Source of the DNA: Bacteroidales bacterium | GTDB taxonomy: Bacteria; Bacteroidota; Bacteroidia; Bacteroidales; JBGRPZ01 | Assembly (NCBI GenBank): GCA_041725955.1 | Contig: JBGRQE010000010.1 | Span: forward strand, 2,376-66,375 | Reading direction: 5' to 3' | DNA: 64,000 bases | Part shown: positions 59,507 through 64,000 of the stretch, piece by piece | Layout: each line of letters begins with the position of its first letter | Numbering within the stretch: the first letter of the stretch is position 1 | Notes under the pieces: generated by a model | What the model was told of the DNA's origin: nothing | Database searches by the model: none | Seen by the model: the letters and a program-made list of their open reading frames with translations, nothing else | Translations under genes and position numbers: made by a program

Positions 59507-59836
59507 AGTTGATTAATAAAATGGTAAACTTTTAAAGGCACGAAAGTACAAGGAAATTGGCAGAAATCCTAAAGTTGGAAATTGGCTGATAAACAATCTG
59601 TTTTATACTTTTAAGGACTTGATTCATGGGTTTTGTAGTTCATGAAATAGGTATCTATTACTAGGAAATTATCTCTTTTGAATCCCTTTTTTCTATAGGG
59701 GTATATGTGTTTAGATTATTCTTTTTTATACTTTAGTGCTCTTGTTTAAATAATCATCTTTCCAAAAGGGATTAAAAACTAATTTGATAGTAGCGACGAA
59801 TAATCATTCTTTTTTCAGGTTTAGTGAAAGTATATT

Positions 59837-59863
59837 ATTTGAGTTGATTTGCTAAACTCAAAT
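59837..59863. promoter_or_regulatory. Inverted repeat upstream of the precursor gene
   Basis: atttgagtt-N9-aactcaaat, a perfect 9-bp inverted repeat ending 38 nt before the ATG. Confidence 0.4.
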
Positions 59864-59901
59864 GTTTTTAAGCAACTTCCCTTTTTTTAAAAGTTTATCA
59901 A

Positions 59902-60084
59902 ATGAAAAAGCAAAACTCTATTACAAGGTCTCAAAACATTTCTGAAAGATTAAAGCAGTTAAAACGAAATTATAAAAAACCAGAGTTGGTGGAATTTAAT
60001 TTGCAGAATGCCCTGCAAGATCAATGTTCTGATATGGCTTCCTGCTGGAAAGAAGAAGAGAAAAAGACTATGATTTGGTTTTAG
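59902..60084 (+). CDS. Putative RiPP precursor peptide (60 aa)
   Basis: Located 3 nt upstream of an rSAM gene. Y24-K-K-P27-E-L29 matches YxxPxL. C-terminal QCSDMASCWKEEEKKTMIWF. Confidence 0.8.
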   Translation: MKKQNSITRSQNISERLKQLKRNYKKPELVEFNLQNALQDQCSDMASCWKEEEKKTMIWF

Positions 60085-60087
60085 ACA

Positions 60088-61539
60088 ATGAAATCAAGGC
60101 AAGCATTTAATTTAGAATTCGATATAGTAGGGCATTGTAATTTACAATGCTCTTACTGTTATTTGAATATGGGAGAGGAACAAGATTTGGATGAATCTAG
60201 TTTCTTGACTGAAGAGCGTTTTGATACTTTTTACAATACCTTTTTTAAAGATGTTGATCAGGAAGTAGATCTGAATGTTTCATTTTGGGGTGGAGAGCCT
60301 TTAATGAATTTCCCAATCATTGAATATATTGTTCATCGGTTAAAGGTCTCTTCAAAGGTAAATCGAACCGTATTTGTTATAATAACTAATGGAACATTAG
60401 TTACTCCCGATATTGCGAAGTTTTGTGCAAGGCATGGAGTGTTTTTGCAAGTAACTCTTGATGGAGACAGAAAAAGTCATGATATTCAGCGGAGAACTAA
60501 AAACGATAAGGGGACCTTTGATGCGATTCTTAAGAATATTGAAATTTTAAAGGAATACAAAGCCCCTTATTCTTTAAAAACTACTTTAACAGCGTTGACT
60601 CCATTACCGTCTAAAATTATTGAAGAATATGAGGCCTTAGGATTGACTCCAATAATTCAAGAAAATATGCGAGGAACATTACATCCCGGTTATGGATTTA
60701 ATTTGGTTACTCCTGTTTCTGATTTTGATAAAAGAATCTTGGAGTCCTTTAATCCAGAACTTCTTGCCGAGGATCTGTTTAATTGTTTTTTAGAGGATTC
60801 ACATTCAGATAAGCTGTATTATCACAGTAATATTTATAGTGTAATACAATTGTTTTTTTCTTCTTATCCACGGTCTTCTTGTGGAATAGGTGACAGATAT
60901 CTCACTATTAAATACGATGGGAGTATTTATCCCTGTCATCGCTTTGTTAGTAAAAAAGAATTTGTTATTGGAGATATAAAACATGGTGTTAAGTATCCTT
61001 TTGAAAAGAAAAAGAATGTTGAATGTGAAAAATGCGATTACTTTTTTTTCTGTGGAGGAACTTGTCAGCATAAAATGGCTCTATTTGGGAATGATTATAT
61101 AGATCATAAAAATTGTAGCTTTAATATTCGATTACTGGAGTTGGTTTTTGATTATTTAATCAAAGAGTTCTTTGAAAATCAAGAGTTGTTTCTTGAAAGA
61201 TATGAGAGCTTAATTCCTAGTGATAAAAAGTTTAATCTATGTCAGATTACCAAATCTACAGAATCAGATTTAGATCCTCTTTGTAAGTTAGAAATAAATA
61301 AATTGGCATCTGTATTGCAATTAGAATCAGGTGGTATTATTTATTTAAAGCAGAAGAAGTGGAATAAACATATTTTGAATCAAACAGCTATATTGATTTG
61401 GGATATGATTCCAGTTTATAAAACCCCTCAGCGAATAGCTCAAGAAATATCTCAATCGTGCGATTTGCTTTATAGTGATGTTTTTAAGGATGTCTCTTGT
61501 CAATTAAATAGTTTTAAGGAATCTGGTTTTCTGAATTAA
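60088..61539 (+). CDS. Radical SAM/SPASM peptide maturase with a C-terminal PqqD/RRE-like domain
   Basis: C17-x3-C21-x2-C24, WGGEPLMN, TLDG. SPASM: SCGIG...GSIYPC...CEKCDYFFFCGGTC...KNC (7 Cys). C-terminal LNQTAILIWDMI...IAQEIS...DV..QLNSFKESGFL. Confidence 0.9.
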   Translation: MKSRQAFNLEFDIVGHCNLQCSYCYLNMGEEQDLDESSFLTEERFDTFYNTFFKDVDQEVDLNVSFWGGEPLMNFPIIEYIVHRLKVSSKVNRTVFVIITNGTLVTPDIAKFCARHGVFLQVTLDGDRKSHDIQRRTKNDKGTFDAILKNIEILKEYKAPYSLKTTLTALTPLPSKIIEEYEALGLTPIIQENMRGTLHPGYGFNLVTPVSDFDKRILESFNPELLAEDLFNCFLEDSHSDKLYYHSNIYSVIQLFFSSYPRSSCGIGDRYLTIKYDGSIYPCHRFVSKKEFVIGDIKHGVKYPFEKKKNVECEKCDYFFFCGGTCQHKMALFGNDYIDHKNCSFNIRLLELVFDYLIKEFFENQELFLERYESLIPSDKKFNLCQITKSTESDLDPLCKLEINKLASVLQLESGGIIYLKQKKWNKHILNQTAILIWDMIPVYKTPQRIAQEISQSCDLLYSDVFKDVSCQLNSFKESGFLN

Positions 61540-61824
61540 GTGTTTATAGAAATGGGAATAGAAAAAGTTAAATTATGTCGTCTATCTTCTGTCAAGATGG
61601 TTGAGTTGGATGATGAAATTATCTTGAGTCATCAGGAAAAGAATTATGTGTTAAACGCATCAGGAGTGGAAATATGGGAAATGCTTAAACAGCCCATAAC
61701 AACAAAGGAGATTATAGAAAGAGTTGCTGAAACTTATAATGTTCAATTATCTTTAATTGAGAGTGATGTCATTGAACTTTTGGAAAGTTTTGTAATTAAA
61801 GGATTAATTGAAAAGCAAGCATGA
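61540..61824 (+). CDS. PqqD family RiPP recognition element (stand-alone)
   Basis: VELDDEIIL...YVLNASGVEIWEML...IIERVAETYNV...DVIELLESFVIKGLI. Confidence 0.9.
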   Translation: MFIEMGIEKVKLCRLSSVKMVELDDEIILSHQEKNYVLNASGVEIWEMLKQPITTKEIIERVAETYNVQLSLIESDVIELLESFVIKGLIEKQA

Positions 61825-62657
61825 CTATATGTAGTTATTATTCAATTTGTGGAACACCAATTAAGTTGCAAAGTCCATTACAAGAAATTAATACTTTTTG
61901 CGATTTTATGCTGTATGCTTTTAAAGAAGAAAATTTATCTGAAAGTGAGTGTACCCTTGTTTCTGTAGAAAGAAATTTATATTACTCAGACTATTATGAC
62001 ATTTATAAAAACGGTCAAATAGCTTTTGATTTTGGAATGAAGATGAAGGGAGTACATTATTCTGTTATGTCAAAAGCATTGGAAAATATAGTGTCAGGAC
62101 ATGCAATTAACCAAATAGATAAAAAGGAATTAATCTCCTTGCATTCTGGTGCAATATCTAAAAATAATAAGGGTATATTAATTCTTGGAGAAAGTGGAGA
62201 TGGAAAATCTACTTTCACTCTTGAAATGGTAGCTCAGCATAACTATGAGTATTTGTCTGATGAGATTGGTTTACTTGACAAGGAGTTATTTTTACATCCT
62301 TTTATAAAAACAGTTTCTTTTAAACCAGGTATTGTAAAGTTGAATGATTCATGGATTTGTAAACGGTTTGCAAATGAGTTTCAGGTAAAAGTACCAGAAA
62401 AATTATACGGACAAAAAGTTCCTTTGAAAGCTATATTTACTGTTAAATATAATCCGGATAATCAGACCTCAATTCAACCAATGCAAAAAAAAGACATGTT
62501 AAAACGCTTGTTTAATGCACAAATAGGACGGGAAAGATATATTGCTGAGGTAGGCCAAATTGCAGATATTGTTAAAAGAGTGCCTGTTTATAGGATTGAA
62601 CATAATTCAGCTTCAGAAGCAGCTAAAGCAGTCGACAATCTTTTGTTTGGAATTTAA
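61821..62657 (+). CDS. HPr kinase-like P-loop kinase
   Basis: LHSGAI...GILILGESGDGKST...YLSDE. 4-nt ATGA overlap with pqqD. Confidence 0.8.
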   Translation: MTICSYYSICGTPIKLQSPLQEINTFCDFMLYAFKEENLSESECTLVSVERNLYYSDYYDIYKNGQIAFDFGMKMKGVHYSVMSKALENIVSGHAINQIDKKELISLHSGAISKNNKGILILGESGDGKSTFTLEMVAQHNYEYLSDEIGLLDKELFLHPFIKTVSFKPGIVKLNDSWICKRFANEFQVKVPEKLYGQKVPLKAIFTVKYNPDNQTSIQPMQKKDMLKRLFNAQIGRERYIAEVGQIADIVKRVPVYRIEHNSASEAAKAVDNLLFGI

Positions 62658-62738
62658 TAATTAAGTGGTTTAAAATTATATTAACTTAATTCCTTGTTGT
62701 TTAGGAATGAAGGATTGCATATTTAAGTAAAATTAAAA

Positions 62739-63683
62739 TTGCTTTATATGCAAGTTGAAGATTTTTTATCCTTTCAATTATTTTATTCTGAATTTTTAAG
62801 ATCTCCTTTAACTTTCTCCAAAATTTTGTTTACCGACGGGAGTATTAAGTATATGCCCTTTGTGAAAAGATTGGATGCTTACATAAGTTTGCCTTTTGTT
62901 TCATATACTGGTGTTTTAGATCGGGTTTCAAATCGTTTTTTACGAGGGCCAGATTTCGTTGAACAAAACGGAAACTTAATTTGTGAAGACCCAAAGATTA
63001 TATGGGAAATTAGAGGGTTTCGCTCTTATTCTAATCATATTTTAGATGCAAAGGTTTTGCAGGTCATTAATCTAAAGAAAAATAAAGAATGTAAAAGTTT
63101 CCAAATTGGGCAACATACAAAACGAAAAATTAAGAAAGCTCAGCAAAAACAGCAATATGTTTATATGTTGAATAATGGGCGATGTGATGTTTTTATTGAT
63201 TTGTATCAGCGGTTTTGTCTAAAAAAGGGAATACCATCTTTTTCAAGAAACTTCTTTCAGTTATTAATTGATTTTTTTCCGTCGAGAGTATCCATTTTTA
63301 TAGTTGAAAAAAATGGAGAGCCTATTGCTTCCGCGTGGCTTTTTAAGGATAAGCGTTATGCTGAGGTTACTTGGATTTGTGGTGTGGACGGATATAAAAC
63401 CCATTATTCTCATTTCTTACTGATTTATGAGATTATGCAATATTGCAAAAATGAATCTATTGATTTTCTTTCTTTAGGTCGGAGTGATTATAATAGTGGA
63501 ATTTATGGGTTTAAGAATTTGTGGAAAACTGTAAATATTCCTTTAATATTTAGTTATTCGAAACCTTGTGTTAACGTATGGAATTTAAAAGAATCTTGTT
63601 CATGGGTTATGAAGAATACAGCAAAAGTTTCGCCAACTTTGACTTTAAAAATGGGAGATTTTATTACAAAAAAAGTTTTCTAA
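62739..63683 (+). CDS. FemAB-like GNAT-fold transferase (resembles the PEP-CTERM/EPS-associated FemAB type)
   Basis: ISLPFVSYTG, EIRG, RNFFQLL, HFLLIYEIMQYC, LSLGRS..NSGIYGFKNLW. Confidence 0.72.
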   Translation: MLYMQVEDFLSFQLFYSEFLRSPLTFSKILFTDGSIKYMPFVKRLDAYISLPFVSYTGVLDRVSNRFLRGPDFVEQNGNLICEDPKIIWEIRGFRSYSNHILDAKVLQVINLKKNKECKSFQIGQHTKRKIKKAQQKQQYVYMLNNGRCDVFIDLYQRFCLKKGIPSFSRNFFQLLIDFFPSRVSIFIVEKNGEPIASAWLFKDKRYAEVTWICGVDGYKTHYSHFLLIYEIMQYCKNESIDFLSLGRSDYNSGIYGFKNLWKTVNIPLIFSYSKPCVNVWNLKESCSWVMKNTAKVSPTLTLKMGDFITKKVF

Positions 63684-63883: not shown

Positions 63884-64000
63884 ATGTTACAAAAAACAAA
63901 TTTACTAGAGACTGTTTTTAGGGGTTTTTTCTTATTATCAGTGCTTTTCACAACTATGCCACTGCTTAAAGGATTGGTTCCTCCTATTTTTATTTTTATG
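63884..64000 (+). CDS. Probable N-terminus of a membrane protein truncated by the window end
   Basis: Manual translation MLQKTNLLETVFRGFFLLSVLFTTMPLLKGLVPPIFIFM..., open to base 64000 and hydrophobic. Confidence 0.4.
   Translation, partial: MLQKTNLLETVFRGFFLLSVLFTTMPLLKGLVPPIFIFM

Follow-up and report, generated by a model that had tools for sequence, protein, structure and literature searches.

Thioether-forming radical S-adenosylmethionine (rSAM)/SPASM maturases such as PapB and CteB, the kinases of phosphorylated lasso peptides, and the SynChlorMet and HPr-rel-A gene cassettes are the closest described counterparts of a small operon in a Bacteroidales bacterium that we analyze here. The two cassettes are themselves uncharacterized, to our knowledge. 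PapB, which joins Cys to Asp/Glu through thioethers, tolerates Cys-Xn-Asp spacings of n = 0–6 (PMC9413430), and lasso-peptide kinases require a His-Lys-Asp-Asp motif (PMC9266682). The stretch of DNA we examined, called the window below, is 64,000 nt of contig C10 (JBGRQE010000010.1, positions 2376–66375) in assembly GCA_041725955.1, which comprises 3.8 Mb in 113 contigs and is 92.6% complete. Near one end of the window, genes for a short precursor peptide, an rSAM/SPASM maturase, a PqqD-family RiPP recognition element (RRE; RiPP, peptide synthesized by the ribosome and modified post-translationally), and an ScmC-like P-loop phosphotransferase follow one another on the plus strand (Table 1). 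They form a real gene cluster for a small, presumably cross-linked peptide in a coral-associated bacterium; the sequencing runs that contain the locus are coral-metagenome DNA runs only. We consider it likely that these genes (59902–62657) are the core operon of a rare, uncharacterized RiPP family, with the FemAB-like and Wzy_C genes downstream lying outside it. Literature searches on the gene combination (SynChlorMet/ScmC; HPr kinase with radical SAM and RiPP; ranthipeptide with kinase and nucleotidyltransferase) found no description of it.

The precursor peptide shares a leader and a core with peptides at related loci. We aligned 13 peptides from 12 loci, namely the window peptide and 12 peptides from 11 other loci; those of loci L019 and L020 were uncalled open reading frames (ORFs) upstream of the rSAM gene that we spotted by eye. 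The leader follows the consensus GIKEERLKALKxNYxxP, which appears in the window peptide as E15-R-L-K-x-L-K-x-N-Y24-x-x-P27, and its YxxP is, judged by sequence, the RRE-recognition motif of lasso-type leaders. The core is C-S-D-M-(A/G)-S, or C42-S-D44-M-A-S47-C48 in the window, where it is followed by the tail WKEEEKKTMIWF. Residues R16, L17, L20, P27, D44, and M45 are invariant in all 13 precursors and K18 is nearly so. Y24, C42, S43, and S47 are each lost from no more than one precursor, which for the last three is that of the decayed L007, and C42-S-D44 is kept in 12. The distance from Y24 to C42 is nearly constant (18 residues in the window peptide; a few loci have small indels). Across the family, both the tail and the second Cys (C48) vary, and the C-terminal residue may be F, Y, A, W, R, S, D, or C. 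The invariance of the hexapeptide core may point to a target or function that is conserved as well. The genome has no second copy of the precursor.

Next, we compared the operon with related loci. Among 5.8 billion protein clusters, the rSAM enzyme has about 12 full-length homologs at 27–36% identity, and the ScmC-like protein is found in 24 other clusters at 46–59% identity, including Ca. Electrothrix communis and Ca. Electronema. We examined 14 loci from these homolog matches, one of them from Ca. Electrothrix (L032). They share a common gene order of peptide, rSAM/SPASM with a C-terminal RRE, an optional PqqD, the ScmC-like protein, and a protein of ~175–190 aa. A nucleotidyltransferase of the NTP_transf_5 type (PF14907) is usual, and an MsbA/bacteriocin-type ABC exporter is often present. 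In the 12 loci with aligned peptides, the precursor lies directly upstream of the homologous rSAM/SPASM-RRE gene or of its remnant. The arrangement is far beyond chance, because the order of peptide, rSAM, and ScmC-like genes recurs across the related loci, and the family covers at least two phyla, with members in Bacteroidota-like genomes and in cable bacteria. In G001, a genome of the same genus, the operon is missing and the M49 peptidase ortholog (73% identity) has unrelated metabolic genes on its flanks. No close homolog of the ScmC-like protein turned up in any of 40 same-order genomes (G001 and 39 others), and a single-sequence rSAM search of the genome contigs returned a distant Nitrospirota rSAM only. 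The distribution of the system is therefore sporadic and island-like.

The rSAM enzyme has Pfam matches to Radical_SAM, Fer4_12, SPASM, and, weakly, a C-terminal PqqD. The CX3CX2C motif (C17/C21/C24) and the seven SPASM cysteines (C265, C283, C313, C316, C322, C326, and C343) are invariant in 10 of 10 family sequences. Ranked against NCBIfam models, the enzyme scores best with PapB (NF047865; 178.4 bits, cut-off 340), followed by the nif11 maturase, CcpM, and the SCIFF maturase (TIGR03974; 119.5 bits, cut-off 425), with the anaerobic sulfatase maturase (anSME; TIGR03942; 93.9 bits, cut-off 349) much lower; all scores are below the cut-offs. Among Protein Data Bank entries, CteB (5WGG; E 1e-20), a SCIFF thioether maturase, comes closest, again ahead of anSME. 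The window precursor itself is unrelated to the six-Cys-in-45 SCIFF precursor. We rejected a reading of the enzyme as an anSME on its score and on its neighbors, which are M49 and S46 peptidase genes and a Wzy_C gene with no sulfatase gene adjacent. The invariant C-S-D of the core fits a thioether reading because it falls within the Cys-Xn-Asp range of PapB.

Of the two RREs, the fused one shows strong conservation across the family but has diverged in the window enzyme. The standalone PqqD protein has a Pfam PqqD score of 50 bits and scores 43.5 bits with lasso_PqqD_Bac, below the cut-off of 80. A standalone PqqD also occupies this slot in L032, L034, and L035, where it is 44–57% identical to the family fused RRE; the window copy is 25–34% identical to the family RREs.

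The ScmC-like protein resembles Hpr_kinase_C and HprK_rel_A (HprK_rel_A 50.7 bits, below the cut-off of 200), and its homologs carry precomputed matches to Pfam PF27840 “ScmC.” The alignment of the family profile to the HPr kinase/phosphorylase (HprK/P) structure 1JB1 spans the conserved His, the P-loop, and the acidic pair. In it, H108, K129 of the P-loop (GESGDGKST, G123 to 131), and D147-E148 fall on the His, the P-loop Lys, and the DD pair of HprK/P, and all are invariant in close homologs. An AlphaFold2 (AF2) model (predicted local distance difference test [pLDDT] 79.7, predicted template modeling score [pTM] 0.72) has ATP-dependent phosphoenolpyruvate carboxykinase (PEPCK) as its top Foldseek matches, at a probability of 1.0 and query TM-scores of 0.53–0.63. 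The HprK/P catalytic domain belongs to the same P-loop superfamily as ATP-PEPCK, and the protein has the fold and the Walker A arrangement of that superfamily. The model and the alignment thus make phosphotransferase activity well supported, with a core Ser as the presumed substrate.

These comparisons bear on most of what the first-pass annotation had said of the locus. It had listed five ORFs on the plus strand, and their coordinates and spacing (3, 0, −4, and 81 nt, in order) are as it gave them. Its domain calls stand, with Radical_SAM/SPASM and its seven SPASM cysteines, PqqD, the HprK-like P-loop domain, and a FemAB domain above Pfam cut-offs. It had also recognized no characterized pathway, and the system indeed matches none; the rSAM, PqqD, and kinase score below the cut-off of every curated family tested. 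We ran two checks that it had put forward. A conserved peptide does stand upstream of the rSAM gene in homologous loci (the 13 peptides from 12 loci described above), and the rSAM enzyme scores nearer to PapB, SCIFF, and CteB than to sulfatase maturases.

In addition, we looked elsewhere in the genome for genes that accompany the operon at other loci. The family protein of ~180 aa matches Pfam Peptidase_S24 (E 4.5e-4) and TIGR02228, the archaeal-type signal peptidase I (E 9.5e-9). Its profile places an invariant Cys on the nucleophile Ser of SEC11A, a His on the catalytic His, and an Asp on the Asp of GDN, and its AF2 model (pLDDT 80) matches the LexA C-domain, SipA, SpsB, and SEC11A/C. It is therefore a probable leader peptidase with a Cys-His-Asp triad. 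The first-pass annotation had seen no lasso cyclase, protease, or exporter. All are indeed absent from the locus, but the genome does encode this Cys-variant peptidase, unlinked, on contig C31. The C31 protein is 34–46% identical to the cluster-linked peptidases (160 bits) and keeps Cys37, His76, Asp95, and all other invariant residues. Its gene stands between an M28-like peptidase gene and a likely polysaccharide flippase/capsule locus, as judged from the sequences of the neighbors. No match as strong was found in G001 or in 39 other same-order genomes. An NTP_transf_5 gene lies at the start of contig C6, and its product has 25–35% identity to the nucleotidyltransferases that are linked to the cluster in other loci. 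A Cys-rich ORF of 126 aa (C6 1554–1934) with no assigned function comes next.

Table 1. Location of the operon, its downstream neighbors, and candidate partner genes on other contigs (window positions unless a contig is given).
Feature	Location	Strand	Size and remarks
Precursor peptide gene	59902..60084	+	60 aa
rSAM/SPASM maturase gene, diverged RRE fused at C-terminus (~residues 400–483)	60088..61539	+	483 aa
Standalone PqqD-family RRE gene	61540..61824	+	94 aa, GTG start
ScmC-like/HprK-PEPCK-superfamily P-loop phosphotransferase gene	61821..62657	+	278 aa
FemAB-like double-GNAT acyl/aminoacyl-transferase gene	62739..63683	+	314 aa from TTG
Wzy_C membrane protein gene (O-antigen ligase/polymerase-like)	63884..64000	+	410 aa, extends past window; Pfam Wzy_C 72.9 bits
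Orphan Cys-variant signal-peptidase/LexA-fold gene	C31:29569-30081	-	170 aa; GHCMRP, KTHRF, KSDRR
NTP_transf_5 (PF14907) gene	C6:112-1281	+	111 nt from contig start

From the gene family, its synteny, the peptide, the catalytic motifs, and the folds, we infer a route that is a proposal both in each of its reactions and in the part it gives to the unlinked genes. The YxxP-type leader would probably be bound by the PqqD-like RREs, one fused to the rSAM enzyme and one standalone. The PapB/CteB-like rSAM/SPASM enzyme would most likely form a thioether from Cys42 (and/or Cys48) to Asp44, and the HprK/PEPCK-like enzyme would most likely phosphorylate S43 or S47 at the expense of ATP, so that the product is probably phosphorylated. 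By analogy with PsmN acting on pseudomycoidin, the C6 nucleotidyltransferase may then extend or decorate the phosphate. The leader would probably be cut off by the signal-peptidase-like protease of C31 with its Cys-His-Asp triad, and the product would be secreted by an ABC exporter such as those encoded in other loci.

Several observations count against this route. As the rSAM, PqqD, and kinase all score below the curated cut-offs, orthology gives no basis for transferring their chemistry. Instead of repeated CX3D, one Cys-X-Asp motif is present in the core, and the invariant Met45 has no explanation. Lasso kinases phosphorylate a C-terminal Ser, and the family precursors have no conserved C-terminal Ser. 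The peptidase and NTP_transf_5 genes are unlinked, tied to the operon by phyletic co-occurrence in a single genus pair, and no ortholog of the cluster-linked exporter was found in the 92.6%-complete genome. No RNA run contains the locus. Finally, the gap between the ScmC-like and FemAB-like genes, where we would end the operon, has no terminator and no −7 box. A broader proposal, in which the loci make up a cross-phylum, undescribed RiPP class defined by a thioether, a phospho-(nucleotidyl/glycosyl) Ser, and a Cys-nucleophile leader protease, with a divergent FemAB-type transferase recruited here as well, is possible but in our view somewhat unlikely.

Individual members of the family vary in content. 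In L033 (4412–7261), NTP_transf_5 and the ABC exporter are fused in one protein of 949 aa, a fusion that speaks for a functional connection of decoration with export. The gene in the rSAM slot of L032 (7544–8659; Ca. Electrothrix communis CP130629) encodes 371 aa without the N-terminal CX3CX2C core; it keeps the SPASM region and the fused RRE, has a standalone PqqD copy next to it, and is either a truncated maturase or the result of a mis-called start. Immediately downstream of the L012 family locus, on the same contig (3961–7087), is a second, SynChlorMet-like cassette consisting of a 61-aa peptide, PqqD, a split rSAM, and a 292-aa ScmC. Upstream of the precursor, L010 (495–3913) and L011 encode one more rSAM/SPASM enzyme (477 aa) together with a protein of 655 aa without family match, and members of this type may, judging from their gene content, install additional modifications. 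Toxin-antitoxin modules (Gp49/HTH, DUF2281/PIN) lie between the core genes and NTP_transf_5 in L019 (3486–4737) and L020 (1871–2504), consistent with a mobile, island-like context. The L007 locus is visibly decayed, with a truncated ScmC-like gene and an adjacent IS21. We also tested and rejected an unannotated 311-aa gene of L019 as a FemAB homolog and the ~182-aa gene that follows ScmC in other loci as a FemAB fragment or relative (E 1.4).

The FemAB-like gene that follows the operon had been read in the first-pass annotation as a fifth, peptide-tailoring member, and this part of the five-gene proposal is not supported. The protein exceeds the Pfam gathering scores for FemAB (33.1 vs. 24), Acetyltransf_6 (33.5 vs. 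22), and FemAB_like (27.5 vs. 27), but its best curated match, TIGR03019 (XrtA/PEP-CTERM-associated FemAB), reaches 74.4 bits against a cut-off of 260, and its identity to anything known is at most 33%. Among 1.84 billion representatives, the best match is 33% identical and the others 21–30%; the nearest named relatives are Lentimicrobium “FemA/FemB family” proteins, and a word-based homolog search returned only the protein itself. It could be a lineage-specific enzyme that acylates or aminoacylates the peptide and took over the operon slot of the peptidase after the kinase. It does hold the position that the peptidase gene has in other loci, on the same strand and 81–90 nt from the ScmC-like gene (90 nt in the public gene call, which starts it at ATG 62748 and gives 311 aa). 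Two Bacteroidota-type −7 boxes (TAnnTTTG; 63720 and 63738) stand ahead of Wzy_C and none in that gap, which also has no terminator-like site, so co-transcription with the operon is possible. Furthermore, the protein is an extreme outlier in its family, G001 lacks both it and the operon, and acyltransferases that tailor lasso peptides are on record in the literature. However, the gene is absent from all 14 related loci, and the two closest homologs among 300 same-order genomes (G075 and G126) directly adjoin genes for an exosortase, a DUF3473 polysaccharide deacetylase, and glycosyl/sugar transferases. The best family match is likewise the PEP-CTERM/exosortase-associated FemAB. A Wzy_C gene follows it here, beyond which the contig ends; the exosortase-like gene of this genome is elsewhere, after mreBCD on C46. 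The whole locus is missing beside the M49 gene of G001, and that synteny does not separate arrival of the FemAB-like gene with the operon from arrival with Wzy_C. We therefore find a tailoring role unlikely. The FemAB-like gene is probably not part of the peptide system, and it and Wzy_C most likely form a pair related to surface polysaccharides/exosortase that just happens to border the operon. For annotation, the lesson is that such a neighbor should not be merged into a cluster without evidence.

Other readings concern the four core genes themselves. The rSAM enzyme might make a C–C or C–O cross-link, epimerize a residue, or react at Met45, and the P-loop enzyme might activate a carboxylate or hydroxyl without leaving a stable phosphate. 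All curated thioether-maturase models being far below their cut-offs, Met45 being as invariant as Asp44, the lack of conservation of the second Cys, and an ScmC-like fold nearer overall to PEPCK than to HprK would all fit. However, thioether formers fill the top ranks of the family models and supply the nearest solved structure, every non-decayed locus keeps Cys42 and Asp44, and the His/Lys/Asp/acidic set of peptide kinases appears to be retained. We consider such chemistry rather unlikely. Rather than an exported antimicrobial, the product could also be a cofactor-like or signaling molecule cut from the C-S-D-M-A-S block. The combination of PqqD, rSAM/SPASM, and peptidase parallels the pathways of cofactors such as PQQ and mycofactocin, the core hexapeptide is invariant across phyla between variable flanks, and no exporter ortholog was found in the genome. 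This seems very unlikely to us, as most related loci carry the MsbA/bacteriocin-type exporter beside the precursor, the Cys-rich variable tails resemble natural-product cores, and the sporadic, island-like distribution is unlike that of a core cofactor. It is similarly improbable that the system is decaying in this genome, with the peptidase, nucleotidyltransferase, and exporter lost from the operon by rearrangement and no mature product made. The dispersed partner genes, the failure to find an exporter, the unusually diverged fused RRE, and the decayed loci in the family (the truncated ScmC-like gene by IS21 in L007 and the rSAM without its N-terminus in L032) would be expected of such decay, but the four operon ORFs are intact and tightly coupled with every catalytic residue kept, and the orphan peptidase retains its Cys37, His76, and Asp95.

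The surroundings of the operon were also inspected. Upstream, on the opposite strand, are housekeeping M49 and S46 peptidase genes, and the M49 gene is separated from the precursor gene by a divergent, AT-rich intergenic region of 395 nt (59507–59901). The synteny break relative to G001 coincides exactly with this region. Its plus strand contains no exact TAnnTTTG −7 box. Across the window, this Bacteroidota motif is not enriched (113 vs. 100), and its occurrences are a hint only; a sigma-70 promoter scan likewise stayed at shuffle level (31 vs. 30.3). Downstream, the contig ends 1,386 nt beyond the window, after the Wzy_C gene. Near this end (~1,000–1,120 nt past the window), a stretch of 123 nt matches the reverse of the C26 start at 92% identity, a repeat that is probably the reason why the assembly breaks shortly after the Wzy_C gene. 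End overlap and BLAST gave no link between the C10 end and the start of C6, or between it and other contigs; the repeat is all it shares with the C26 start.

The interest of the locus comes chiefly from the coupling of an rSAM enzyme to a kinase and from the Cys-variant signal-peptidase-like protease. If the proposed chemistry is true, an rSAM thioether would be joined with a kinase/nucleotidyltransferase pair characterized so far only on lasso peptides, a protease with the S26B fold and a Cys nucleophile would be a new type of RiPP leader peptidase, and the compact Cys-X-Asp substrate and its enzyme would suit promiscuity studies of the kind done with PapB. The family is rare, at ~25 sequence clusters among 5.8 billion, yet it covers both Bacteroidota-like genomes and cable bacteria.

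As for comparison with known systems, the protease has the fold of SEC11 and archaeal type I signal peptidases (S26B) and of the LexA clan, with nucleophile, His, and Asp at the corresponding positions, but its nucleophile is Cys (GHCM[K/R]P) rather than Ser, and it appears to be a soluble component of a RiPP cluster. The SynChlorMet (ScmC/ScmD/ScmE-F) and HPr-rel-A (HprK_rel_A + PqqD_rel_X) cassettes of Haft contain the same HprK-like and PqqD-like modules, and the former also includes an rSAM/SPASM enzyme. The operon falls below the cut-offs of both, at 14.5 vs. 125 bits for ScmC, 17.3 vs. 100 for ScmD, and 65.1 vs. 400 for ScmE (SynChlorMet, TIGR04248–04251), and at 50.7 vs. 200 for HprK_rel_A and 15.2 vs. 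35 for PqqD_rel_X (HPr-rel-A, TIGR04352/04353). With the phosphorylated lasso peptides (paeninodin with PadeK; pseudomycoidin with PsmK/PsmN), it shares an HprK-like P-loop protein (whose His, Lys, and acidic residues align to HprK/P), a PqqD-type RRE, and the YxxP leader, and the family-linked NTP_transf_5-type nucleotidyltransferase and ABC exporter extend the likeness. However, the ring-forming enzyme here is an rSAM. A lasso cyclase and a B2 protease are absent from the locus and the 14 related loci, and the B2 protease (PF13471) has no match in the genome, with control genomes positive; together with the lack of a conserved C-terminal Ser, this led us to reject a lasso peptide reading. 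With PapB (freyrasin) and CteB (SCIFF, 5WGG), the operon shares CX3CX2C and the 7-Cys SPASM, an RRE-guided Cys-containing precursor, and a Cys-X-Asp in the range of PapB. It departs from them in its C-terminal RRE, in having one C-S-D-M-A-S block instead of six CX3D repeats, and in the kinase-like protein, Cys-peptidase, and nucleotidyltransferase that are coupled to the rSAM. By analogy, the system would combine maturation of the ranthipeptide kind with the kinase/nucleotidyltransferase tailoring of phosphorylated lasso peptides.

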